DNA of 20,000 bases, from IMG/VR virus record IMGVR_UViG_3300044984_001006; one strand, written 5' to 3'. The stretch comes from an uncultured virus (IMG/VR IMGVR_UViG_3300044984_001006) (taxonomy: Duplodnaviria > Heunggongvirae > Uroviricota > Caudoviricetes > Crassvirales). A program made the translations under genes and the position numbers. Shown here one piece after another: positions 3-14,357 of the stretch. The first letter of the stretch is position 1. Every line of letters starts with the position of its first letter. The notes under the pieces were generated by a model that saw only the letters and a program-made list of their open reading frames with translations, was not told the origin of the DNA and made no database searches.

Positions 3-3000
3 AAAGAAGCTAGAGAAACAGAATTTAATGAAAATTTAGCTGCAGCTCAAAAATTAGCAGAAGCTGAGGATGTTACAGTGATATTAGCCGAAGACTACGA
101 TGACGCTTCAAGGCAAATGCAGGCGTTAATAGCTGACAAAAAAATTACGGAAGAAGACGCAAACATATTAGGATTTAAAGGAACAGATGGTAAAATAGTT
201 ACAAGTTCATTAAATGGTAAGGATTACATAGTAATAAATAAACAACAGTCTATTAATCAAAAGGCAGTAACAGTAGGTTCGCATGAATTTTTACATAAAT
301 TATTACAAAAAACATTAAGTAAAGCTGGTGCACAAATAGCTTTGGGTCAACAGTTAAAAGAATACTTATTAGCTTCTAATCCTGAACTATTCATGAATGA
401 AAAAGTATTAGGTAGATTACGTGCAAATTATAGAAACGCTTCTGAAGGTATTCAAAATGAGGAAATATTAACCTTGTTTTCTGATGCTTTGCTAAATGGA
501 AATATAAAATATAACGAATCGTTTTTTACAAAGTTAGGTGACACTATAAGAAGATACTTACAAGATCTTGGTTTAATAAGCATAAAATTTGATTCTGGTA
601 GAGACGTATTTAATTTTATAAGAGATTATAATGACACTATCAAAAAAGGAGGAGAAGCAGGTAAAGCAATTAAAAATCTATTTAAAGAAGGAGCAAAAGG
701 TAAATTAACCGAAGAAGGAGGAGCACAAGCTGATACATCTAGCCTAAGTTCAAAGTCTATTGAAGAAAGAATGGATAAATTAGATGATCAACTAGCTAGT
801 AACGAAATTGATCTTGATAAGTATGAATCTGAGATGAAAAAACTTGAACAAGAAGAGTTTGAAGAATCTAAAAAAACATACGAAGAAGAGAAGAAAGTTG
901 TTAAAAAAGAAACTACTAAAAAAGATACAACAAAAAAAGAACCAACTGAAGTAAGTGAAGCCGCAACAAAAGCTAAAGCTAAATTAGATGCAATTGGTAA
1001 TGATCCAAAAGGTTTTAATCCAAATAATCCAGCCATTTACGATGAGCTAGATAAGATGGTAAAAGTAAAATCTAGAAACTATAAAACTTCTAACGGTACT
1101 GTAATTGATCTTACAAATAAAAACAAAGGGGGATTAGATGGATTCAACATGGAAGAAATGACAAGCTATGTAACAATGTCAATGCTCCCTTATATAAACA
1201 AATTTGATCCTTCTAGAAATGACAGTTTGTATGGATATATAAACGCTCAGTTAGCAAATAGAATGAAAGCGGCATTAAAATCTGGCCAAGTAGCTAACGT
1301 AGTATTTACAGAAGATGTTACTGAAATGACTAAACTTTCAAATGAGGATGTTGAAGTTAAAACACCAACATTACCAGAAAGAAAAAAGTATCAAAATATT
1401 TTAGAGTCTGGTGTATTTTCGCCGGAAGTAATTACGGATGTTCAAGCAAAAATATTACCTATAATAAGAACGTTGAAATCTAGGGTTGATGAGAAGACTA
1501 CACTTAATAGAACAACCGCTCCTATAATTAACGAAATACGTACTGAGATTGGTAAACAAGCCGACATTGACATTAAAAGAGCAATGGGAGGAAAAGAGGA
1601 TGGTCAACTTAGAAAATTCTTATTAATAAATAAAAAGCCTATACTTGAAAACATGACTACTACCTGGTTAATGGGTAAAGACAACGGAAAGACCGTATCT
1701 GGGGGTATGCCATTTGCTATTCAAAAAAGGATAAATGGTCAATGGACCAGCTTTCCTGATTGGATTGGTAAAAAAGTAGATAGAGAGTCTGTTGAAACAG
1801 ATTTAGCAGGTAGAACTTCTGGAGCTGAACTAGTTAGAAGATTACCAAATGCAGCTAATAATGTTCCTGATGATGTTTTCTTAGAATCAATCATAGATCC
1901 AGCAACCGGATTGCCTTTAAGAGGTAGAAAAGAAGCATTAGCCAAAGCAATGAGTGAGGAATTAGCATTTGATTTAATATCTGACGATATGTTATCAGGC
2001 GGACCAATTTATCAAGCATTACAAAAAAATCAAGAAATACTTGGAGCAGAGGTTGGAAAAGTAACCGTAGAAAATATAAACAGATTAGCTGAAAGAGGTA
2101 ATATTAAATACTCCTTATCTGCAGATATGATGTTAGATATTGAAAATAATTCAACAGCTTTAGGAAAAGCAATTGTAGGTTTAACTAAAATCACAAATAG
2201 TAGTGTTAAAAAAATACTAACAAATATATTTGTAAATGATTGGGATGAAAATCAAATAAAAAAAGCTACTGAAAGTTTACTTTATGTGTTAAAAAGAAAT
2301 GAAAAATATTTTGGATCTGATGAACTTATAAATTATGAAGGGAATACAATAGAATATCTTTCTAATATCAGCAAAGAACAAGATTTTGGTAAATCTATTT
2401 GGAAACAATTATCATCTGATGTAGCAGTTGCTGCATTTTATAGAAAACCAGAAAAAGTTAAAAAGCTAAAAGAATTAAACCAAGATTTTATGATTGATAC
2501 TCTTAAAGATTTTGGCGATGCAGAAGGTACAAGAATTCTATATTCCATGTGGGCTCCCACTGTTATAAATGGTAATTTTGATATATCTTTATTCCGCATG
2601 AAGGATATGGACAAAAGGAGAACCGCTTTTATTGATGAGTTAAACAAAGCTAGAAAAATAGCTTTTGGAACAAAAACAAATAATATTTCTGAAAAAGTAT
2701 TAAAAGAAAAGTATAGAGGTTATGCAAAAGTGAACAAAGTACATTTTAATTATTTTGATGGTACATTTGATATAAAAAAAGACAGATTAAGAACTAAAGC
2801 TGCTAAAGATTTAACAATATATGCGGCTAAGTGGTGGGGTAAAAATTTAAAGGAATTAGAGCCATCATATCAAGCAGCTATGTTTACATTATTAGCAAAT
2901 AATGCTGATAGCGTTGTAAGGTCTGCTGCTCCTGTTGTTGGTATTATAGATGAAGGAATAAAAGTTCCTTATGTATACGAGCATTCCAAACCAGTAAGAG

Positions 3001-5885
3001 TAGTTTTAGCACAGCTAATTGATAAGTATATTAATAAAAACGACAATATTACAGAGGATGAAATATTTGAAAACTATAAAGTATTAATAGTACCAAAAAA
3101 AGTATCTGATATACTAGATAAATCTGGTGTAAAACAAATGATGGATCCATTTTATTTTATAAAAGATAAAACAGATTTTTCAAGATATGATAGTTTATTT
3201 AAAAATAATATTGTTCAATCTATTAATATTTTTGAAGCTCAACAACAGAATATACAAAATGAAAAAGCTGCTTTAAATAATCTAAACCAAGAAAGAAACA
3301 GCAAATCTAGCGGTATAACAACAGTATCAGATTATATTAATGATAATAATTCAAGAAGATTAGACACAGAAACTTCTTATGATTTATTAGATAAATTAGC
3401 AAAAAATATTGAGGATTATTGGGGAATATTGCCTAATGATATTATTCTTGGCATGAATAGAGCTATAGATTATGCTGTGGATGTAATAGAAGACCGTGAA
3501 GGAGCCGGTTTATTAATGGAAGCTATGAACCAAGGCTTGAATATTGAGACTGTTAAAAATGCTGAAAAGCAATTAAACGAGTTTATTGATAAAAACCAGC
3601 CAAAAAACGAAATGTATAGCAAATCTTTAGACTTTCAGTTTAATGATATACTAGAAAGAAACACTGGTGTCGCGGCATTTACAAAAGTATCTGATGTAGT
3701 AGCTAAAAGAACAGGTATTAAGAAAAACACATTATCATTCTTTGTACCGCCTTCAGCTGATGACTTTAGAGGTTTAACAACTTATATGTTTGCTGGTAAA
3801 GGTAAACAAGGAGAACAAGATCAAGAATTCTTTGATAAAAACTTAACTGTGCCGTATGTAAAAGGTATTAATACTTTAGATTCTGTACGTCAATCTATTA
3901 GAAAAGAATATAAGATGTTACTTAATAACTTTCCTGATGTTAAAAAGAAACTTGAGAAATTAACGCCAGATAAAGGCTTTACTTATGATCAAGCTGTTAG
4001 GGTTTATCTTTGGTCATCAACTGGTAAAGAGGTACCTGGTTTATCAAGAACTGATAAAAATAAATTATTGTACTTTGTAAAACAAAACCCTGATTTGTTA
4101 GCTTTTGCGAACGCATTGTCAATAACTGGTAGACAAGATGGTGGATGGATTGATCCTTCAACAACTTGGGATAGTGAAACTATTATATCTGATCTTCACA
4201 ATATTACTGAAGGTGCTGGTAGAAAGAAATATCTAGAGGAGTTTATAGAGAATGCTGATGCAATATTTACAAAAGAAAACCTAAACAAGATACAATCTAT
4301 ATATGGTACAAATACAAGAGAAGCATTAGAAGACTCTTTATATAGAATGAAGAATGGTAAGAATAGACCAGAAGGTACTGACAGAGTAACAAATACTTGG
4401 ATGAACTGGATTAATGGTTCTACTGCCGCAATTATGTTCTTCAATACTAGATCAGCATTGTTACAGACTATATCAGCAATTAACTTCATAAACTGGAATG
4501 ATAATAATCCATATATGGCAGGTAAAGCTTTTCTTAATCAGAAACAATACTGGAGTGACTTCGCAATGATTATCAATTCCGACAAATTAAAGGAAAGAAG
4601 ATCTGGATTAAAAGCCGATGTTACTCAAGCCGAGATTGCTAATGCTGCAAACAGTGCTAAAAACAAATTTAACGGTGTTATATCTTATTTACAAAAAATA
4701 GGTTTTACACCTACACAAGCAGCGGATAGTTTTTCTATCGCAGTTAGTGGTGCTACATTCTATAGAAATAGAGTTAACACATATTTGAAAGCAGGTGATA
4801 CTGTACAAGAAGCTGAAGAAAAAGCATTCAATGATTTTTCAATCATAACAGATCAATCAATGCAATCCGCCGATCCAATGTACGTTTCAAAACAACAAAC
4901 GACTGCATTAGGACGCATTATATTGGCTTTTGGTAATACTCCAATGCAATATAATAGATTGATCAAAAAAGCTACGTTAGACTTAGCTAATAGACGTGGA
5001 GATTGGAAAACAAATGTTTCTAAAATTGTATACTACGGAGCATTGCAAAATATGTTATTCTCGTTTTTACAATCTGCATTGTTTATACCATTAGGTTATG
5101 ATGATGAAGAAGAACCTGATTTTTCTAAAATGACTAAAGAGGAAAAGAAAGCCTACGAAAAGTTAAAGAAAAAAGGAGAGGATAAAATATCAAACATGAT
5201 TAACGGTATGGCTGATACCTTATTAAGAGGTTCAGGTGTATATGGAGCAGCTATTGCAACTGTAAAAAATACAGCAATGGAATATTTCAAACAAGAAGAA
5301 AAAGAAATGTTTGCAGATCATGCTTATACAGTATTAGCTCTAACAAGTGTATCTCCACCAATAAGTTCAAAAGCAAGAAAACTTTACGGATCAATTAGAA
5401 TTAGTAAATTTGAAAAAGATGTTATTGCTGAAAGAGGCTGGGAAGTTACAAGAGACGGTAAATTAAACTTAGCTCCTAACTATAGAATACTAGGTAATGT
5501 AACGGTAGCAACTACCAACTTACCATTAGATAGGGTTGTTGAAAAGGTTAATAACATGGCTGAAGTAATGGACTCTAGAAATACCAAATTACAAAGAACT
5601 GCATTAGCATTAGGATGGAAAGATTGGGAACTTAACGTGAAAAACGAAGAAAATGAAATCATCAAAGCAACGGCTAAAGAAAAACGTAAGGAGGAAGGTA
5701 TAGAAAAAGCTATTGAAACAAGATATGAAAATAAACAAAAAGAAAAAGAAATGTTTCGTGGATTATCTATAAAAGAAAAGATTGCTTATAGGAAAAAAGA
5801 AGCGCTGGATAAAAGAGAAAAGAAACTGAAACAGAGAGAAAGACTAATTAAAAGAAGAGAAAAGAATAAAAGAAAAATGGGTTAA
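3..5885 (+). CDS. Giant polyvalent, probably virion-associated/ejected protein (5'-truncated); zincin-like HExxH motif, sigma70 region-2-like segment, EHxxP HNH-like segment, helical C-terminal region
   Basis: Frame is open from nt 3, so the GTG at 78 is not the true start. Motifs: HEFLH (282-296) with downstream NEEIL; YINKFDPSRNDSLYGYINAQL (~1190-1255); YEHSKP...ILDKSG...MMDP...RY (~2975-3190). Size and opposite orientation to the replication block fit phage internal virion proteins. Confidence 0.75.
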   Translation, partial: KEARETEFNENLAAAQKLAEAEDVTVILAEDYDDASRQMQALIADKKITEEDANILGFKGTDGKIVTSSLNGKDYIVINKQQSINQKAVTVGSHEFLHKLLQKTLSKAGAQIALGQQLKEYLLASNPELFMNEKVLGRLRANYRNASEGIQNEEILTLFSDALLNGNIKYNESFFTKLGDTIRRYLQDLGLISIKFDSGRDVFNFIRDYNDTIKKGGEAGKAIKNLFKEGAKGKLTEEGGAQADTSSLSSKSIEERMDKLDDQLASNEIDLDKYESEMKKLEQEEFEESKKTYEEEKKVVKKETTKKDTTKKEPTEVSEAATKAKAKLDAIGNDPKGFNPNNPAIYDELDKMVKVKSRNYKTSNGTVIDLTNKNKGGLDGFNMEEMTSYVTMSMLPYINKFDPSRNDSLYGYINAQLANRMKAALKSGQVANVVFTEDVTEMTKLSNEDVEVKTPTLPERKKYQNILESGVFSPEVITDVQAKILPIIRTLKSRVDEKTTLNRTTAPIINEIRTEIGKQADIDIKRAMGGKEDGQLRKFLLINKKPILENMTTTWLMGKDNGKTVSGGMPFAIQKRINGQWTSFPDWIGKKVDRESVETDLAGRTSGAELVRRLPNAANNVPDDVFLESIIDPATGLPLRGRKEALAKAMSEELAFDLISDDMLSGGPIYQALQKNQEILGAEVGKVTVENINRLAERGNIKYSLSADMMLDIENNSTALGKAIVGLTKITNSSVKKILTNIFVNDWDENQIKKATESLLYVLKRNEKYFGSDELINYEGNTIEYLSNISKEQDFGKSIWKQLSSDVAVAAFYRKPEKVKKLKELNQDFMIDTLKDFGDAEGTRILYSMWAPTVINGNFDISLFRMKDMDKRRTAFIDELNKARKIAFGTKTNNISEKVLKEKYRGYAKVNKVHFNYFDGTFDIKKDRLRTKAAKDLTIYAAKWWGKNLKELEPSYQAAMFTLLANNADSVVRSAAPVVGIIDEGIKVPYVYEHSKPVRVVLAQLIDKYINKNDNITEDEIFENYKVLIVPKKVSDILDKSGVKQMMDPFYFIKDKTDFSRYDSLFKNNIVQSINIFEAQQQNIQNEKAALNNLNQERNSKSSGITTVSDYINDNNSRRLDTETSYDLLDKLAKNIEDYWGILPNDIILGMNRAIDYAVDVIEDREGAGLLMEAMNQGLNIETVKNAEKQLNEFIDKNQPKNEMYSKSLDFQFNDILERNTGVAAFTKVSDVVAKRTGIKKNTLSFFVPPSADDFRGLTTYMFAGKGKQGEQDQEFFDKNLTVPYVKGINTLDSVRQSIRKEYKMLLNNFPDVKKKLEKLTPDKGFTYDQAVRVYLWSSTGKEVPGLSRTDKNKLLYFVKQNPDLLAFANALSITGRQDGGWIDPSTTWDSETIISDLHNITEGAGRKKYLEEFIENADAIFTKENLNKIQSIYGTNTREALEDSLYRMKNGKNRPEGTDRVTNTWMNWINGSTAAIMFFNTRSALLQTISAINFINWNDNNPYMAGKAFLNQKQYWSDFAMIINSDKLKERRSGLKADVTQAEIANAANSAKNKFNGVISYLQKIGFTPTQAADSFSIAVSGATFYRNRVNTYLKAGDTVQEAEEKAFNDFSIITDQSMQSADPMYVSKQQTTALGRIILAFGNTPMQYNRLIKKATLDLANRRGDWKTNVSKIVYYGALQNMLFSFLQSALFIPLGYDDEEEPDFSKMTKEEKKAYEKLKKKGEDKISNMINGMADTLLRGSGVYGAAIATVKNTAMEYFKQEEKEMFADHAYTVLALTSVSPPISSKARKLYGSIRISKFEKDVIAERGWEVTRDGKLNLAPNYRILGNVTVATTNLPLDRVVEKVNNMAEVMDSRNTKLQRTALALGWKDWELNVKNEENEIIKATAKEKRKEEGIEKAIETRYENKQKEKEMFRGLSIKEKIAYRKKEALDKREKKLKQRERLIKRREKNKRKMG

Positions 5886-6109: not shown

Positions 6110-7978
6110 CTATACAATCTCACAATTACCTCCTCCACACGCTGCTGAATCAGTAAAGTTAGTGTTATCTTGTATTTCCACTACTTTTGATAGATCAACA
6201 TCTTTTAATGTAGACATCATTTGTTCATAGACTTCTTTAGTACAATCTTCAAATGGAGTTTGTTTATATGTTCCGCCGTTATATGGTAAAACAGATAATC
6301 CATTATAGTATTCTTTGTTTGCCCACATCCATTCACCTACAATTTTCCATTCATCATCTCTGACAGAAACCGTACAAGATACATTATGGGTATTGTTTCC
6401 TTTCTCATGACCAGTTTTAACCCAGTCTCTAGATATAAGCTTTACTCTTTCTAATAAATCTAATGTAGATTCATATCTTGTTATAGCTCCTTCTGGTGCT
6501 TTTTGAGGCACAGAAATTACTGATTGTAATGTAGGATTAAAATATTCATCTTCTAACAATTCTGGATGATTGATTGCAAGATAGGAATAGATTGCTTCAT
6601 TCTTGCCTAAACGCATACGGCGAATATAATAGTCGTTATGCCAAGCGTGAATACCGCTAGAAGTGCCCAAAACAAGGCTAGTAGTTCCTGCCGGCTTAAC
6701 TGCGGTGGTTCTGGCCGCTTTGTTGATATTAAGAGCCGCTGCAATAATATTATTTGTTTCCTTAACAGTTTGTGCTGCTTCTTCATAGTTTAAATTTAAG
6801 TTAGATTCTGACGCAATGCCCGTCATTGACACACCTAATAATGCGTCTTTTTCTGTATTCTTTCTCCATATATCACGAAGGTAATGGAAGTCTGAATATG
6901 ACGCTTGTAATGTACCTAAGAATGATGCCGCTGAAGATCTTGCATTGAAATCTTCTTGACTTTCAATATTAGACATATTAATTTCTGTTAGGTTACAGAA
7001 CTGATACGGTCGTAAAGCAATTTCACAACAAGGATTAGTACCCCAATCTTTATCATTAGTAAGATATATTCCGGGTTCGCCTGAGCCAGAAGCTTCAATT
7101 CTTTCCCAAACTTTGTCAAATGTTTTCTTATCAATTTTATGTCTTAAAAGTACTACTGAATTATTTGCTCTACCTCTTTGTGGATTATCTTCCCACCAAC
7201 TACCAGCTTTACAATTTAACATTGCTGTACTATCTAAGTCAAACAATGAAATCATTGCTGCTCTTCTAATTCCGCCTGCTAAAACTGCATCGGCGATATG
7301 ACACTGAATATCGTGACATTCAATATCTGTTAATCTAGATCTATCTTCTTTTTCACGAAGGATAGCTTCAATCTTAACCAATGCTAGTCTTAATGGTTCT
7401 GGTCCTGGTGCTTTGCCCCCAGCTGTTACAAGCAATGCGCCTTTTTGTCTAATATCGGAAAGATCAAATTCAATATGTGAGGTTAATTCCCCTGTATATG
7501 ATTTAAACAATGTCTTAATCGCATCAGCCCAACCAATAATACTATCCTGTACAACATAACGTTTTTTACGATCGTAATTTGGTTTTCTTATTTCAGGTAA
7601 TTTCTCAATGTTGTGATTCTGGACTGAATACCCCACACCAGTTCCTCCAAGAAGTAAAAACATAGTTTCAGCAAAACTACGGATATTATCAACAGGCAAA
7701 AAAGCACAATTATAAATGCGAGCATTATTGAGTTCAATAGCTTTACCACCAAATTGCAGGCTTCGCATCGAAGGTAAAACTTTTTTATTGAAAACAAAAT
7801 TTTTGTATACTTGTTCAATTGATTCTTTCATTTGCGGAAACTTCGACACGTGCATCTCCATATTCCTGGTTACTAATTCTTCCCACGTTTCTCTACGTTC
7901 TTTTGCTGGCACATACTTTGCATACTTTGTGTATACGGTAATATCACTTAAGATCTGCTTATCTAGGCTTAAACTCAT
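6110..7978 (-). CDS. nrdJ: Class II (adenosylcobalamin-dependent) ribonucleotide reductase, monomeric RTPR-like
   Basis: 622 aa; YNCAF, GGTGVG, GGIRRAA, NPCCEI (thiyl radical Cys), KPAGTTS, C-terminal CGGGNC redox pair; no adjacent NrdB small subunit. Confidence 0.9.
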   Translation of the reverse strand: MSLSLDKQILSDITVYTKYAKYVPAKERRETWEELVTRNMEMHVSKFPQMKESIEQVYKNFVFNKKVLPSMRSLQFGGKAIELNNARIYNCAFLPVDNIRSFAETMFLLLGGTGVGYSVQNHNIEKLPEIRKPNYDRKKRYVVQDSIIGWADAIKTLFKSYTGELTSHIEFDLSDIRQKGALLVTAGGKAPGPEPLRLALVKIEAILREKEDRSRLTDIECHDIQCHIADAVLAGGIRRAAMISLFDLDSTAMLNCKAGSWWEDNPQRGRANNSVVLLRHKIDKKTFDKVWERIEASGSGEPGIYLTNDKDWGTNPCCEIALRPYQFCNLTEINMSNIESQEDFNARSSAASFLGTLQASYSDFHYLRDIWRKNTEKDALLGVSMTGIASESNLNLNYEEAAQTVKETNNIIAAALNINKAARTTAVKPAGTTSLVLGTSSGIHAWHNDYYIRRMRLGKNEAIYSYLAINHPELLEDEYFNPTLQSVISVPQKAPEGAITRYESTLDLLERVKLISRDWVKTGHEKGNNTHNVSCTVSVRDDEWKIVGEWMWANKEYYNGLSVLPYNGGTYKQTPFEDCTKEVYEQMMSTLKDVDLSKVVEIQDNTNFTDSAACGGGNCEIV

Positions 7979-8414: not shown

Positions 8415-8589
8415 CTTTCGTTTGTTTTGGGTTATTAAACATCTCTATTGTTTTTATTAGTTCTTTATATCTTATTTTGCCAAACGTTTCAAATGACCAC
8501 ATATACCATTTTTCGATTTGTCTATCTGCATATCTTTGTCTTGCTAATCTTTTTGTTTCAAAAGGATTAATCGTACTGTCTCGTCGCAT
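8404..8589 (-). CDS. Hypothetical protein (61 aa) overlapping the nuclease 3' end
   Basis: Operon-strand ORF filling the gap; overlaps the upstream gene by 46 nt; start uncertain. Confidence 0.55.
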   Translation of the reverse strand: MRRDSTINPFETKRLARQRYADRQIEKWYMWSFETFGKIRYKELIKTIEMFNNPKQTKDDI

Positions 8590-8987
8590 TCTTTTTGTTG
8601 TTGAGGTTTATATAAAGTTCTTGTATCGCCATTATCTTTCATGTGTTTTTTAAACATTTTCCAGCGTAAAGGAAATGAGTCATTAGCTCTACCTTTAGTT
8701 TCTATAATAAAACTTTCACCTTCAAAATCTGGTGTATATTTCAAATTAAGTACTTTCTTATTACCTCTGTTTATAAAATCACCTTTACTATTAGATTGTC
8801 TTTCAAAACAATCGTTATCAAAATTAAAAGCAGGTATTAGTTCGTAAGTTTTATACTCATAATGAAATTTTATACCAGCATCTTGCAATGCTTTGTACAT
8901 ATACTTTTCAAGACCGGAAGCGAAAGTGATGCCATCATACACCACTTTCTTTGACACAACTGGTCCTTTCTTTTTAGTTCTCTTCAT
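8544..8987 (-). CDS. PD-(D/E)XK endonuclease, T7 endonuclease I/DUF1064-like (putative Holliday junction resolvase)
   Basis: YDGITFASGLE, YE, YTPDF...IIETKG motifs. Confidence 0.8.
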   Translation of the reverse strand: MKRTKKKGPVVSKKVVYDGITFASGLEKYMYKALQDAGIKFHYEYKTYELIPAFNFDNDCFERQSNSKGDFINRGNKKVLNLKYTPDFEGESFIIETKGRANDSFPLRWKMFKKHMKDNGDTRTLYKPQQQKECDETVRLILLKQKD

Positions 8988-9231
8988 TCTTCTCTATTCT
9001 TCTTATTACAGCATCCATAAGATCTTCTGAATAAACTTCTTTAGCTTTCTGTAAATAAAGAACAGCATCCATTAATTCTTCTTGTAAATGATTAAGCCAT
9101 TCAAATATTCTAGACTGATCTTCTTCTAATGTTACGCCATACTTTTTGTAGCCAACATCAGATCTACCAACAAATTTTGTAACAACTCGCTCAACTACTG
9201 GGTCCCTAAATTTTATTGTCTTTTCTGTCAT
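8974..9231 (-). CDS. Small all-alpha NTP-pyrophosphatase-like (MazG/dUTPase-fold-like) protein
   Basis: R..VG..KYG.TL followed by WLNHLQEELMDAVLY (EExxD acidic helix). Confidence 0.55.
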   Translation of the reverse strand: MTEKTIKFRDPVVERVVTKFVGRSDVGYKKYGVTLEEDQSRIFEWLNHLQEELMDAVLYLQKAKEVYSEDLMDAVIRRIEKNEEN

Positions 9232-9232
9232 A

Positions 9233-10162
9233 CTATAAAGTTGTTTTAATTGTTACACCTGGATATGGTTTCATTAATATTGATTCATGATAACCTGTTG
9301 TTTTATTATGCTCTGGAAAATTAGGGTATTGTGTTATTGTCGTAAAAGTATTTGTATCTGTATCTTTAACAAAAGATCCGTTAACCATTTTACCTGTACG
9401 CTTTTCAATTACTTGATATGCTGATACAACGCAATCTTCTACTTTTAATCCTTCTAATGCAGCTAAATTTGTTAATACAACCATCATATCACCAATAGCA
9501 TCTATAAATTCTTCTCTATCGCTTTTAAGAATTGCTCTTGCTAATTCACCTGCTTCTTCTTGTAATTTAACAAATTGTGTTTTAGCATCACCGTTTCTAT
9601 ATAATCCACGTTCATCGGCCCACTTTCTTATTAAATCATAAACGTTTGGTTGTTCCTTAACTTGCGGCATAAAAGCTTCTTCTATATGCTTAATAGGATT
9701 AAAATTATCGGCTACAGCTTCATGTAAGGCTTTATTATACACAAAGCATCTATTAGGATTGAACATTGAAACTTTTACGTTAGTCATTATCCATGCAATC
9801 AATTCTTTATTTAATAGATAATTACCAAAAGGTGTTTCAAAAGTTAATCCGATTGCATCTGTTAGTTGTCCTTTCAGCTTATTCACAGGGCATGGAAATG
9901 TTGTTGTTTGATCTGTTACATTTAATTTCATTTGATTTGATTTTTTAGATTTGTTAATTACTTTTTTATATGAATCTCGGTCTACCTTGTAGCCGTATAA
10001 ACGTTGAAGCTCTGATTCTCTCCTTGATATATAATCTATATCTTCGGATGCTTCCAGAACTTCGTATTCTCCAATCTTATAGCCTTGTGCTATAGTTACT
10101 CTCTTATTAAGATTACGTGTAACTCCTATTTTTTTAGTCGGAATATGATAAATGTAGAACAT
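9233..10162 (-). CDS. Fusion protein: GIY-YIG-like N-terminal domain, unknown middle domain, MazG nucleotide pyrophosphohydrolase
   Basis: N-term YIYHI..KKIGVTRNLNKR...RESELQ; C-term IRKWADERGL...QFVKLQEEAGELA...DAIGDMMVVL...AYQVIEKRTGKMVNGSFVKD, a typical phage MazG pattern. Confidence 0.8.
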   Translation of the reverse strand: MFYIYHIPTKKIGVTRNLNKRVTIAQGYKIGEYEVLEASEDIDYISRRESELQRLYGYKVDRDSYKKVINKSKKSNQMKLNVTDQTTTFPCPVNKLKGQLTDAIGLTFETPFGNYLLNKELIAWIMTNVKVSMFNPNRCFVYNKALHEAVADNFNPIKHIEEAFMPQVKEQPNVYDLIRKWADERGLYRNGDAKTQFVKLQEEAGELARAILKSDREEFIDAIGDMMVVLTNLAALEGLKVEDCVVSAYQVIEKRTGKMVNGSFVKDTDTNTFTTITQYPNFPEHNKTTGYHESILMKPYPGVTIKTTL

Positions 10163-10171
10163 AAATTTGAT

Positions 10172-10942
10172 TTAAACGGCTACTTTTGCAGTAATTACTG
10201 GGCCGTGGTTATAATTAATTAGTTTTAACTCATTTAAACTGTATCTGTAAGTTGGTAATGCAAATATCGGTTGTTGTAAATATTTATCAACAGACTCTAT
10301 TTGATTGTTGTAAATATGCGCATCAATTATTTGTATTTCTAATAAATTAGGTTTGTATTCTGTTAATGTACTTACATATAATAATATCTTTGTAAACAAT
10401 GCTACATCATACGGAATACCTAAAAACAAATCACCTGATCTTTGTAATACAAACATATTAAGTTTGTCATTTTCTACAAAGAATTGAAAATATAAATAAC
10501 AAGGTGGTAATCGCATTTCTTTAATTTGTGCAGGATTCCATAAACTAATAATATGTCTTCTACTATCTGGCGTTAATATTATACTTTGTATTAATAATTG
10601 CATTTGATCAATACCTTGGCCATTAAAGTCTCTCATCTGATAACCATATACAGGACCAAGATCTCCATTTTCATCTGCCCAAGCATCCCATATCTTTACG
10701 CCAGCTTCTTTAAATCGTTTTGTATTTGTTTCCCCATTCATAAACCATTCAAATTCTGTATCAAATGTTTTTTGAAACATCTTTCTACCTGTTATCAAAG
10801 GAAAATATTTTGAAACATCAACTTTTAAACTAGCATTGAATATTGATTTACTACCAACTCCAGTTCTATCAGCTCGTTTAGTACCTGTGAGAAGGCATTC
10901 TTGCAATAGATCTCGATATTGCTCTTCATATTGTTGTGTCAT
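10172..10942 (-). CDS. Thymidylate synthase homolog with Asn-to-Asp specificity change (putative dCMP methyl/hydroxymethyltransferase)
   Basis: DRTGVG, IWDAW, LGPVYG, SRR, LPPC, QRSGD, DAHIY and C-terminal VAV are retained, but PYD replaces PFN and PCY replaces PCH. The likely start is the ATG at 10942, just after the upstream stop; the ORF track gives 10957. Confidence 0.9.
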   Translation of the reverse strand: MTQQYEEQYRDLLQECLLTGTKRADRTGVGSKSIFNASLKVDVSKYFPLITGRKMFQKTFDTEFEWFMNGETNTKRFKEAGVKIWDAWADENGDLGPVYGYQMRDFNGQGIDQMQLLIQSIILTPDSRRHIISLWNPAQIKEMRLPPCYLYFQFFVENDKLNMFVLQRSGDLFLGIPYDVALFTKILLYVSTLTEYKPNLLEIQIIDAHIYNNQIESVDKYLQQPIFALPTYRYSLNELKLINYNHGPVITAKVAV

Positions 10943-10943
10943 A

Positions 10944-11285
10944 TTAGAATAGTTCATAATTAATTATTTGTTTAGGTTTTTCAATTTCTTCTTGAATTAC
11001 TTTTTTAGGTTCTACCTTCTTAATTACTTCTGCACCACTATATTTATCATAATAATAAGTATAGAATTTAAAAAGTTCTTTCCAGATTTCTACTTTTTTA
11101 TAATATAATGGACTTTGCGTTACTTTACTATTAGTTGTAATAGTAAGATACCATTCTGATGCACTTTTTGCTGTAGGTGAAACATATATTTTATTTTTTA
11201 TACACCAATTTTTAGCTTCTTGTTCTCTTGATGTAGGCGCATAATTACCCATATCAATTGCACCTTTTTTATTACCACTACCCAT
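10944..11285 (-). CDS. Hypothetical protein (113 aa)
   Basis: Operon-strand ORF translationally coupled (TAATG overlap) to the upstream gene. Confidence 0.75.
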   Translation of the reverse strand: MGSGNKKGAIDMGNYAPTSREQEAKNWCIKNKIYVSPTAKSASEWYLTITTNSKVTQSPLYYKKVEIWKELFKFYTYYYDKYSGAEVIKKVEPKKVIQEEIEKPKQIINYELF

Positions 11286-11534: not shown

Positions 11535-13262
11535 TTAAATTTCCCAAGGCATTTTATCGTTAGAAGTATCTATTGGTATATGAGGAATAAAGCAACCACT
11601 TTGACTTTCCCATTTAAAATGACATTCAGCACCATTCTCTCCAAGGTTCTGAAACTTACATTTTAATACTTTAACCTTAACGGTTTTATCTTCATAGTTT
11701 CTATGAACTAATAAACCATGATAAGAAGCATCATACCATTCACCACCACCTTTAATATTATACATAGTAGGTTCTTCAATATTACCTTTTGTATCTTTAT
11801 ACATTTTTGTAGGGTGAGCTACAATCATAACAAGTACATCATACTTTTTAGCAAAGATTTCAATCTTACTTAAGTATTCTAATGTATAAACATTAACATC
11901 ACCAGAAGCATCGTTATCTCTTACTTTATTAAATGGATCAATAACTAAACATTTGATTCCTTTGCGTTTAACAAGCTCTGCTCCTTTTCTAAGGACTGAA
12001 TCTAATGTATAACGTTCCATATCAATGAAAAAATAATTGTCATTAACATGATCAGCTATTTGATTCCACTTTTCAGTTTTAATATCTGCTACAGTAGGCA
12101 TACCTTGCCACGTTTTACGCATTAACTTGTGAGCATGCAAATATGTTGGTGTATTTTCAGGTGAAGCATAAGCTGTTTTCCAACCATACTTTTCATTGTA
12201 ACCAACAACCATTTGATCTACAAAATCAGACTTACCAGAAGACGGTATACCGGTAACAGTAATGAATTGACCAGTGTACGTAGAAAAAATATTATCAAAA
12301 TTATCCAAGCCAACTTGGAACCCAGGTTTGAATCCGTTTCGAACAAAGTCCGTAACTTCATCTTCAATATCTCTAAAAGTTGTAACATTTTCTAAAGGAA
12401 CAGGTTTAGATCTTGAAATTCTTTGTGATAAAGCTTCAGGACCGTATTTAAGTAAATATTCATTTGCATCTTTGCAATCTTCAAACGATGCGATATAACA
12501 GATTTCAGAACCTAATCTTCTAACTAGTTCTGTTTGTAATGCTTGACCAGCAGGATCAGAATCAACCGCAATAATGATTCTTTCTTTGTCATCAAAATAA
12601 TCAATACAGTTATCTAAGTACTCAAGATTGTTTGTACCTAACGTTGCTCCATTTGGAACAGATATTGCATTAGTGATTCCTGCTTCATGTAATGCAAGGA
12701 CATCCATTTCGCCTTCAACAATAACACAGTACTCATAACCAACAATACTATTAATATTATAAAAAACTTTTTCAGCACCTTTGTATAATTTAAAATTCTT
12801 TTTGCCGTCTCGGTATTTTATATTGATAAGTTGATCGCCAACAAAGTAATTGAAATGTATAGCATTTTCAGTTTTGCCAGTTTGTGGCATAAATTCTTGG
12901 CCTTCTGATATTCTTAATTCTTGTAATGTTGTTTGTGATATACCTCGATCATTAAACCACTTTAATACTTTTTCATTGTATGGATAATCTAATCCGGAAT
13001 CAATGACGGCATCTCTTTCAGGTTTAACATATACTTTTTCACTTTTACCTTTGCGTTGATAAGTATGAAGTTGAAATGTTTTAGAACAGTTATGACAAGT
13101 ACCAATACCTCGTTCCCAATCATAAGAAGCACATTTTGCTTTTTCATTTTTAGGCTTTCTATCAGGTGAACACAACGGACAAATACCTTGCGACTTTCCT
13201 TCTTCAAGCTTGTATTGATTGAATTGGTCAATCAAGAAACCATTTATCTCAGTTGTTTGCAT
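11535..13262 (-). CDS. Bifunctional DNA primase-helicase (T7 gp4/Twinkle-like)
   Basis: Zn finger CPLC...CHNC; TOPRIM IVEGEMD and DSDPAG, KDANE; SF4 helicase Walker A GIPSSGKS, LVIDP, VAHP. Confidence 0.92.
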   Translation of the reverse strand: MQTTEINGFLIDQFNQYKLEEGKSQGICPLCSPDRKPKNEKAKCASYDWERGIGTCHNCSKTFQLHTYQRKGKSEKVYVKPERDAVIDSGLDYPYNEKVLKWFNDRGISQTTLQELRISEGQEFMPQTGKTENAIHFNYFVGDQLINIKYRDGKKNFKLYKGAEKVFYNINSIVGYEYCVIVEGEMDVLALHEAGITNAISVPNGATLGTNNLEYLDNCIDYFDDKERIIIAVDSDPAGQALQTELVRRLGSEICYIASFEDCKDANEYLLKYGPEALSQRISRSKPVPLENVTTFRDIEDEVTDFVRNGFKPGFQVGLDNFDNIFSTYTGQFITVTGIPSSGKSDFVDQMVVGYNEKYGWKTAYASPENTPTYLHAHKLMRKTWQGMPTVADIKTEKWNQIADHVNDNYFFIDMERYTLDSVLRKGAELVKRKGIKCLVIDPFNKVRDNDASGDVNVYTLEYLSKIEIFAKKYDVLVMIVAHPTKMYKDTKGNIEEPTMYNIKGGGEWYDASYHGLLVHRNYEDKTVKVKVLKCKFQNLGENGAECHFKWESQSGCFIPHIPIDTSNDKMPWEI

Positions 13263-13814: not shown

Positions 13815-14357
13815 TTAGTTAATAATTTTATTTGATTTAATTTGATTTTCATTTGCCCATAAGGGTTGTAAATTTGAATAACAGCATAATTTAATTATAT
13901 CTTCTTCATTTTTTGCACTATCTAATGGTATTATATGATCTAAATGCCACTTGCCGTGGTTTTCCCAATTCATTCCTTCTTTAAATAGTGATTCTAAATA
14001 TACTTTAAAATTTTCATAAGAACATCCTATAATTTCTTCTGTACTTTTATTTTTTAAAAACTTTTTAGATTTTAGAAAATAATATATTCTGGTTCTAAGT
14101 ATGTTTTTTAATTTATACAATGGATTATTTCTTCTTCTATTTTTAGAGTATTCATTAATTTTAATTCTATTTTTAACTCTATACTTTTTAGAATATTCAT
14201 TTTGCTGTTTTCTTATTTTTTCTTTATTCTTTTCGTAGTATTCTTTTTGTAATACTCTAACATTACTTTTGTTACTTTTATAATATTCCTTATTATAGGA
14301 AAGCATATACTCTTTCATATATGCCTTCCTTTTTTCTTTACGTTCTTCTATAGTCAT
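13815..14357 (-). CDS. HNH endonuclease (homing-endonuclease-like) with Lys/Tyr-rich repetitive N-terminus
   Basis: GMNWENHGKWHLDHIIPL...YSNLQPLWANENQIKSNK; N-terminal KEYY-type repeats; very AT-rich. Confidence 0.85.
   Translation of the reverse strand: MTIEERKEKRKAYMKEYMLSYNKEYYKSNKSNVRVLQKEYYEKNKEKIRKQQNEYSKKYRVKNRIKINEYSKNRRRNNPLYKLKNILRTRIYYFLKSKKFLKNKSTEEIIGCSYENFKVYLESLFKEGMNWENHGKWHLDHIIPLDSAKNEEDIIKLCCYSNLQPLWANENQIKSNKIIN

Follow-up and report, generated by a model that had tools for sequence, protein, structure and literature searches.

The final 20 kb of the 64,675-bp virus record IMGVR_UViG_3300044984_001006, the whole of which 20,000-nucleotide stretch we refer to as the window, encode a thymidylate synthase (TS) homologue and, downstream of it, a fusion of GIY-YIG nuclease and MazG pyrophosphohydrolase domains. 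These two genes form a cassette that, judging from sequence, probably swaps phage cytosine for 5-methylcytosine (5mC) through the MazG domain, the TS homologue, and the kinases and polymerase of the host. In the related phages, three Asp-type TS forms, two predicted to yield 5mC and one T4-like form predicted to yield 5-hydroxymethylcytosine (5hmC), interchange in one slot. The cassette is laid out as follows.

10172-10957, minus strand: ThyA-like TS, 261 amino acids (aa), predicted 5-methyl-deoxycytidine monophosphate (5-methyl-dCMP) synthase; cassette core
9233-10162, minus strand: three-domain fusion, 309 aa, always downstream of TS; cassette core
9965-10162, minus strand: N-terminal minimal GIY-YIG (T5orf172-like) domain of the fusion, residues 1-66
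9704-9931, minus strand: middle alpha/beta domain of the fusion, residues 78-153, matching no named family
9365-9649, minus strand: MazG/all-alpha nucleoside triphosphate (NTP) pyrophosphohydrolase domain of the fusion, residues 172-266, predicted deoxycytidine triphosphatase (dCTPase)

All genes named in the initial annotation lie where it placed them, on the minus strand and end-to-end or overlapping. Its proposal that the TS and the fusion are linked holds in strict form. Linkage searches were anchored on genes other than TS, and TS-bearing contigs overlap between searches. With the primase of this phage as anchor, 76 of 80 loci reach the slot and all 76 contain a TS (38 of the type found here, 34 of a short T4-gp42-like type, and 4 of another Asp type that is also ThyA-like). 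When a relative without the cassette supplies the primase anchor, 75 of 80 loci have a TS, 3 have no cassette, and 2 end early. The N-terminal domain of the fusion lies downstream of the TS in all 151 TS-bearing loci among these 160, and none of them reads as Asn-type. Equal occurrence of Asn-type TS beside the same neighbors, which would speak against a dedicated module, was looked for and not seen: of 210 TS-bearing loci of the family, 208 have Asp177, two are unread, and none has Asn. Likewise, none of 23 Asn-type TS loci from unrelated phages has these neighbors.

The short T4-gp42-like TS, present in the slot at 110 loci, is truncated and carries L143D. In a rapidly built primase tree with 75 rows (the window plus 74 retained from 246), the TS-type labels change 16 times, and strong branches force at least four changes per TS type. 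The MazG domain of the fusion is 82-84% identical to that of four hydroxymethylase-type carriers and 55-59% identical to that of four carriers of its own type; thus, the fusion tracks the phage backbone and not the TS type, and the TS alone is swapped. No residue of the fusion splits cleanly by TS type (best difference, 0.62). The genes of this genome that carriers of the cassette commonly share and all four non-carrier genomes lack are limited to the TS, the fusion, the gene for an 85-aa protein, and several small ones (DUF6321 and early genes of 120 and 58 aa). The TS and fusion pair also occurs sporadically, with several TS types, in a second phage family of smaller genome size (L038, L040, L042, L047, L100, L101, L450, L461, L473, and L490).

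In ten cassette-less loci inspected, the slot holds other genes, for instance phosphoesterase-like and methyltransferase-like open reading frames (ORFs; labels by eye), and it resembles a site where nucleotide and anti-restriction genes are exchanged. By eye, a metallophosphoesterase-like gene is seen in several of these slots (L198:7113-7868, L203:6185-7732, L214:2146-3343, L227:1145-2635, and L213:6727-7668), some of which add a dATP/dGTP-diphosphohydrolase-like or DNA methyltransferase-like ORF.

The TS is homologous to ThyA along its full length (PF00303, 1.5e-74) and retains the ThyA-type C terminus; it is the sole PF00303 match in the phage genome, which has no second TS. Aligned to solved ThyA, the Xp12 TS, and T4 gp42, its Cys153 corresponds to C146, Tyr154 to H147, Leu150 to L143, Asp176 to D169, and Asp184 to N177 (E. 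coli numbering). The residues expected of an Xp12-type 5-methyl-dCMP synthase are all present (Cys146, Asp177, a non-His residue at 147, a hydrophobic residue at 143, and Asp169). The protein scores above the TIGR03284 cut-off, although it lacks the Asn177 and His147 of a canonical ThyA; it has Leu in place of the acidic residue 143 of the T4 gp42 type, and Asp176 in place of the D169N exchange of RB69-type 5-hydroxy-dCMP synthases. The earlier assignment as a dCMP-type enzyme is supported by N177D and H147Y, with L143 and D169 kept. Analyses in PMC8670742 present positions 177 and 147 as the best two separators of TS from modified versus unmodified contigs, and describe co-occurrence of TS with a PRA-PH domain (PF01503) in experimentally cytosine-modified contigs. 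According to results in PMC13326640, L143 correlates with methylation, an acidic residue 143 with hydroxymethylases, and D169N with hydroxylases. From Leu143 and Asp169, the enzyme is predicted to methylate dCMP, which would make 5mC the product. Experiments in bioRxiv 2024.12.05.627091 offer a precedent, as five of seven Asp177 phage TS produced 5-methyldeoxycytidine (5mdC) in E. coli with the T4 kinase. The TS resembles bacterial ThyA (up to 41-44% identity) more than it does the Xp12 TS (25%).

The fusion is modelled as three domains (pLDDT 82). Both parts of the GIY-YIG/MazG fusion first described for this gene stand, and a third conserved domain (at about residues 78-153), which that description lacked, is confidently modelled between them and is possibly the DNA-binding part. 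The C-terminal domain matches PF03819 and PF01503 above cut-off, its PDB profile match is also MazG-like, and its fold matches 1vmg (Z, 9.7; root-mean-square deviation, 2.7; 81 residues aligned). All 76 aligned orthologues share E202, E203, E206, D221, and D225, in an alignment for which 75 sequences were kept out of 174 once near-copies were dropped. By fold and acidic metal-binding motifs, the domain belongs to the MazG/all-alpha NTP pyrophosphohydrolases, and it is predicted from sequence to be a dCTPase. Its fold neighbors have varied substrates and include mammalian DCTPP1 with bound 5-methyl nucleotides.

The N-terminal domain is matched by the T5orf172 profile in 32 of 76 orthologues at an E value of ≤0.1 (best, 2e-5), its nearest Atlas clusters are T5orf172, and it is modelled as beta-beta-alpha-beta-alpha. 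It displays the features of the GIY-YIG superfamily (T5orf172), namely, two strands with the Tyr and Gly boxes, the helix Arg, and the catalytic Glu. Y5, K11, G13, R21, E49, and D61 are invariant in all 76 aligned orthologues, and we take Y5, G13, R21, and E49 to fill the GIY-YIG catalytic roles. Fold searches with the whole fusion were filled by MazG-domain matches and barely probed the N-terminal and middle domains; the viral fold library gives weak GIY-YIG matches at ranks 39 and 43, and residues 1-155 have no match in annotated phages. Endonuclease VII/HNH-like ORFs, identified by eye, lie between the TS and the fusion in some relatives (L007:11040-11414, L013:1874-2215, and L050:11022-11390), and another such ORF is located elsewhere in the window (13815-14357).

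By analogy with T4 endonuclease II, the GIY-YIG domain may cut DNA that contains unmodified cytosine; this is the least secure step of the pathway we propose, and we rate it as a tentative, nearly even call. A discriminating role would fit with a domain that is fixed to the predicted dCTPase, kept with either a 5mC or a 5hmC synthase, and lost together with them. A bolder and rather doubtful extension is a self/non-self device, in which one polypeptide would remove unmodified cytosine both as deoxycytidine triphosphate (dCTP) and as DNA, any C5 synthase would serve as the antidote, and host kinases and polymerase would do the rest. If true, host DNA and unmodified rival phages would be destroyed, the near-fixation of the cassette in an abundant aquatic phage family would be explained, and the family would represent a large unrecognized pool of 5mC/5hmC DNA.

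For the nuclease step alone, it is quite possible, if somewhat short of an even prospect, that the domain is instead a tamed homing-endonuclease domain blind to cytosine modification, in a phage whose DNA is modified all the same. Such a domain would spread the cassette between phages or process replication or recombination intermediates. Its closest relatives (44-53% identity) are free-standing ORFs with other C-terminal parts, and come from unrelated phages (L103, L104, L107, and L108). PMC10448857 treats T5orf172 as a subfamily of homing endonucleases whose genes cluster close to those of ribonucleotide reductase (RNR) and the replisome. In addition, the N-terminal domain has no significant match to I-TevI or to T4 EndoII (DenA), the single-sequence profile of the latter covering 14 columns at a probability of 0.9%, which also counts against our analogy. 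However, the marks of homing named in PMC10448857 are patchy presence and decay, whereas the domain here occurs at all 151 of the TS-bearing loci found by primase anchor, keeps its catalytic-type residues invariant, and is gone whenever the slot has no TS.

In the 5mC substitution that we favor, the class II reductase would supply dCTP, the MazG domain would convert dCTP to dCMP, and the TS would convert dCMP to 5-methyl-dCMP (5mdCMP). Host kinases would then raise 5mdCMP to the triphosphate (5mdCTP) for incorporation by the host polymerase, host ThyA would provide thymidine monophosphate (dTMP), and 5mC would likely shield the phage genome from restriction. That MazG acts on dCTP and that host kinases and polymerase take part are both inferred.

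The restriction sites of these genomes offer a footprint of such a modification. Observed counts of restriction-type words were compared with Markov expectations in 15 carriers (this genome and 14 picked from 48, mostly over the first 60 kb) and four non-carriers. Mean observed/expected ratios are 0.75-0.92 in carriers versus 0.15 in non-carriers for CCGG, 0.75-0.81 versus 0.03 for CGCG, and 0.96-1.31 versus 0.22 for GATC, and carriers equal non-carriers for AATT and TTAA. Over 105 de-duplicated carrier loci, the median for CCGG/CGCG/GATC is 1.05 (minimum, 0.73), compared with 0.00 (maximum, 0.75) over seven related non-carrier loci, a contrast weakened by the picking of these three words after the first 15-versus-4 comparison and by the small number and relatedness of the non-carriers (both of those in the primase tree fall in one small group), so that P values overstate independence. 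Two more distant cassette-less relatives are purged as well: MW202828, which has ThyX, shows observed/expected counts of 0/26 for CCGG and 0/202 for GATC and retains CGCG, and elemoA shows 0/12 for CCGG, 0/13 for CGCG, and 0/23 for GGCC. The footprint fits the initial claim of modified DNA and supports extensive C5 modification in carriers, without naming the base.

Among 31 C-containing six-base palindromes, the lowest three in this genome are CATATG (0/19), GATATC (0/17), and GGTACC (3/13). The tables of PMC7653180 record NdeI and EcoRV as fully cutting T4gt (5hmC) DNA and KpnI as fully cutting Xp12 (5mC) DNA, and no other non-degenerate site of this class is scored there as completely cut (chance, 1 in 4495, post hoc). 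GATATC stands at 0.19 and 0.09 in the two larger carrier groups versus 0.46 in non-carriers, and for GAATTC non-carriers have 0/42 and carriers a ratio of about 0.6. As a side observation, the whole genome lacks GGATAC/GTATCC (0/17 expected), a word that is also low in several carriers and shows no such depletion in non-carriers; its enzyme BciVI is listed in PMC7653180 as cutting modified DNA very partially.

Several observations weigh against 5mC substitution as we propose it. The main gap in the pathway is the absence of a kinase and a polymerase. A genome-wide search for both, suggested by the initial annotation, found neither: the T4-type deoxynucleoside monophosphate (dNMP) kinase (PF21448), thymidylate kinase (PF02223), and family-A polymerase (PF00476) are all at 0 of 50 genomes, 47 of them at least 90% complete. 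Pfam scans over 70 ORFs from this genome, in which a 2871-aa ORF was covered over its first 1351 residues, reveal no polymerase, kinase, or transferase (glycosyl- and carbamoyltransferases included); for polymerase and kinase families beyond the three above, these scans were the sole check. A P-loop scan of 19 genomes shows no kinase-like ORF, and dCMP deaminase is found in 0 of 49 related records. The phage kinase and DNA polymerase of a full T4- or Xp12-type pathway are thus missing, and the pathway would have to draw on the kinases and polymerase of the host or on a phage enzyme that escapes recognition. The five-of-seven 5mdC result reported in bioRxiv 2024.12.05.627091 was obtained with added T4 kinase, and data in PMC13326640 show only trace incorporation in E. 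coli with the RB69 and DLP3 synthases alone. On the host side, five Flavobacterium genomes (G054-G058) have weak PF02223 matches that fall on dNK-family ORFs, with no canonical thymidylate kinase, and Bacteroides is the sole control genome among 14 without a PF02223 match; these bacteria may have an unusual dTMP kinase, which may be the enzyme to accept 5mdCMP. The presence of DCTPP1 with 5-methyl nucleotides among the MazG fold neighbors means that rejection of 5mdCTP by the MazG domain is not a given.

The footprint has contrary points of its own. GGTACC is just as depleted in the predicted-5hmC group, and non-carriers have even less of it; it was consequently rejected as a divider of 5mC from 5hmC carriers, and the footprint cannot tell the two bases apart. 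Entries in PMC7653180 also show Acc65I, which shares the KpnI site, as blocked, EcoRV as having no site in Xp12, and NdeI as inconclusive there. This genome is low in CGCG (10/22) and CATG (83/177), though 5mC blocks BstUI, NlaIII, and FatI, and it keeps GATC (185/187), though MboI and DpnII cut Xp12 DNA. An explanation of the CATG depletion by 5mC-insensitive enzymes was rejected, as NlaIII and FatI are both blocked on Xp12 DNA. In the second family, which has the same TS and fusion pair, the median is 0.22 in 16 carriers versus 0.05 in 29 non-carriers, a comparison that left out 16 unclassified loci; 9 of the 16 carriers are below 0.3, and they are mostly still without GATC and CATG. Recent gain of the pair would explain this weak relief.

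These last carriers, together with the lack of a phage kinase and of a second TS, favor a different reading, in which the enzyme serves thymidine supply: dCMP would be methylated, a host deaminase would turn the product into dTMP, and the phage DNA would contain ordinary cytosine. All five Flavobacterium genomes have three or four PF00383 deaminase-fold genes each, which also speaks for this reading. Even so, we judge it improbable, since carriers keep restriction sites that non-carriers purge, and no Asn-type TS, although the direct route to dTMP, was read in the slot. Moreover, the slot often holds the T4-gp42-like, hydroxymethylase-type enzyme, whose inferred product cannot yield dTMP and which would have no use in dTMP supply.

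Returning to the two-gene cassette, its limits are set by the genes around it, which are arranged in the window as follows.

11535-13262, minus strand: primase-helicase, used as the TS-independent search anchor
10944-11285, minus strand: 113-aa hypothetical protein, the upstream flank of the slot, retained in cassette-less relatives
8974-9231, minus strand: 85-aa helical-hairpin protein, accompanying the cassette in this family and also found apart
8544-8987, minus strand: 147-aa PD-(D/E)XK nuclease (DUF1064, resolvase-like), a flanking core gene outside the cassette
6110-7978, minus strand: class II (B12) RNR, a context gene that non-carriers have too

The initial annotation had envisaged a four-gene module, with two pyrophosphatases and two nucleases all dedicated to one discrimination system; of this, the TS and the fusion stand, and the 147-aa nuclease and the 85-aa protein fall away. 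The 147-aa ORF (DUF1064/PHROG Holliday junction resolvase-like) is present in all four non-carrier genomes and in elemoA, and 20 of 51 nuclease-anchored loci retain it without TS, fusion, or 85-aa gene, which makes it a core gene and contradicts the four-gene version for this member. The 85-aa gene fits better at first sight, with a presence in 72 of 76 TS loci of this family and in none of the four non-carrier genomes. However, its family occurs without TS in elemoA, MW202828, mumin9-2 (cultured Flavobacterium phages among them), and, in the second family, 20 of 29 non-carriers, which argues against a modification-specific NTP pyrophosphatase. It may be a passenger or helper in the cassette family, and a module of all four genes is decidedly improbable.

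The 85-aa protein is modelled as a helical hairpin (pLDDT 93) with invariant R-S-x2-G-x2-K-Y and Q-E-E-x2-D motifs, the acidic one being invariant in 69 of 69 aligned orthologues. Fold searches with the monomer return only generic helices, PDB profile, Pfam, NCBIfam, and Atlas searches name no family, its profile has no match to the fusion, and its longer forms include no telling fusion. A P-loop was considered and rejected, the G-x4-GK-T look-alike of some orthologues being unconserved.

A TS product other than 5-methyl-dCMP, be it 5-hydroxymethyl-dCMP or some further C5 derivative, is the least probable of the alternatives, and very much so: the product rule is a correlation at position 143, where the Xp12 methylase is aligned with Asn, the TS is only 25% identical to that of Xp12, and two of the seven predicted methylases reported in bioRxiv 2024.12.05.627091 gave no 5mdC, but Leu143, Asp169, and the ThyA C terminus are kept here, the hydroxymethylase-like type of the slot has Asp143 and is truncated, and Pfam finds no glycosyl- or carbamoyltransferase among the scanned ORFs.

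The source record has direct terminal repeats and a completeness rating of 100%, and its genome encodes GroEL/GroES and crAss-type muzzle domains. The terminase is 63% identical to that of Podoviridae sp. ctfjg026 (MW202828) and 44% identical to those of Flavobacterium elemo phages, and the nearest match of the primase-helicase is Cellulophaga phage phi10:1. From these matches a Bacteroidota host is likely, in agreement with the earlier assignment as a Bacteroidota-type phage. Near-identical DNA is present in lake and freshwater metagenomes, and 17 public runs, mostly of lake water, contain at least half of the 20-kb stretch, two of which may be its source. The top NCBIfam match of the class II RNR is the triphosphate type, under cut-off. 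The 2871-aa ORF ends in the window (78-5885, plus strand) within the virion module, and the parts of it that were scanned match nothing in Pfam convincingly. A 120-aa early gene (L001:6328-6690, minus strand) is found in 10 of 14 carrier genomes, some with tandem paralogues, and in none of the four non-carriers; it has no Pfam or NCBIfam match and is, speculatively, a candidate helper, for instance against modification-dependent restriction. ARAGORN reports a tRNA-Ile with an AAT anticodon (L001:627-720, minus strand), which is unusual for bacteria and possibly spurious, and a promoter scan scored below chance.

Asp177 phage TS, 5mC substitution, and the linkage of TS with PRA-PH are already published, which limits the surprise as to enzyme class; on the fusion itself and on this phage family, nothing relevant was found in the open-access literature. 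New here are the domain order of the fusion (GIY-YIG, middle, MazG), the exchange of three synthases beside one fixed partner, a family without recognizable kinase, deaminase, or PolA, a module cut to two genes, and the site footprint. If the proposal is true, a widespread lake and sea phage family substitutes its cytosine with two dedicated genes and switches between 5mC and 5hmC by exchanging one of them. Two questions follow: which host kinase takes modified dCMP, and whether a single fusion can police the nucleotide pool as well as DNA. If real, a dCTPase inactive on 5mdCTP and a small nuclease stopped by 5mC or 5hmC would be useful reagents. The pattern of kept and purged restriction sites may also allow base modification in uncultured phages to be read from sequence alone.

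Compared with known systems, the closest in predicted product is Xp12 (MT664984; TS QNN97214), which has a ThyA homologue with Asp177, a non-His residue 147, and Asp169, like this phage, and the same predicted product, 5mdCMP. As given in PMC7653180, Xp12 DNA contains 100% 5mC and resists about 90% of type II enzymes. Xp12 has dCMP deaminase, DHFR, and DNA polymerase I beside its TS, whereas this phage has the GIY-YIG/MazG fusion instead; its family differs further in deaminase (0/49), PolA (0/50), and TS sequence (25% identity). A complete known-type pathway is also seen by eye in an unrelated phage (L074:3961-5908), with an Asp177 TS, a pyrophosphatase-deaminase-like fusion, and P-loop kinase-like and polymerase-like ORFs, in contrast to this cassette.

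The 5hmC system of T4 (gp42, gp56, gp1, and DenA) shares the logic of an Asp177-type synthase, a dCTP-removing all-alpha pyrophosphatase, and a GIY-YIG nuclease, and its gp42 shares Asp143 with the short TS type of the relatives. PMC1564403 describes T4 endonuclease II as a GIY-YIG enzyme whose degradation of host DNA leaves modified DNA intact. This phage is unlike T4 in its predicted methyl rather than hydroxymethyl product, in the joining of nuclease and pyrophosphatase in one polypeptide, in having no kinase, polymerase, or glucosyltransferase that we found, and in its DenA profile match, which is not significant. By terminase, the nearest annotated relatives are Elemovirus (Flavobacterium phage elemo) and MW202828, which share GroEL/GroES and a similar gene order. 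Unlike this phage, elemoA (56 of 60 kb covered) and MW202828 have no ThyA-like gene or fusion that we found, and their C-containing sites are purged; MW202828 has an annotated ThyX.

MetaGPA contigs, as presented in PMC8670742 and bioRxiv 2024.12.05.627091, resemble this phage in combining a TS altered at 177/147 with PRA-PH. The neighborhoods depicted there hold deaminases, carbamoyltransferases, and PolA, and the GIY-YIG fusion and interchangeable synthases are the feature of this phage family. Finally, the T5orf172 homing endonucleases of PMC10448857 belong to the same nuclease subfamily and lie near RNR and replisome genes, as here. In place of the zinc-finger DNA-binding repeats of the homing enzymes treated there, the nuclease domain of this fusion is fixed, conserved, and joined to a middle domain and MazG.

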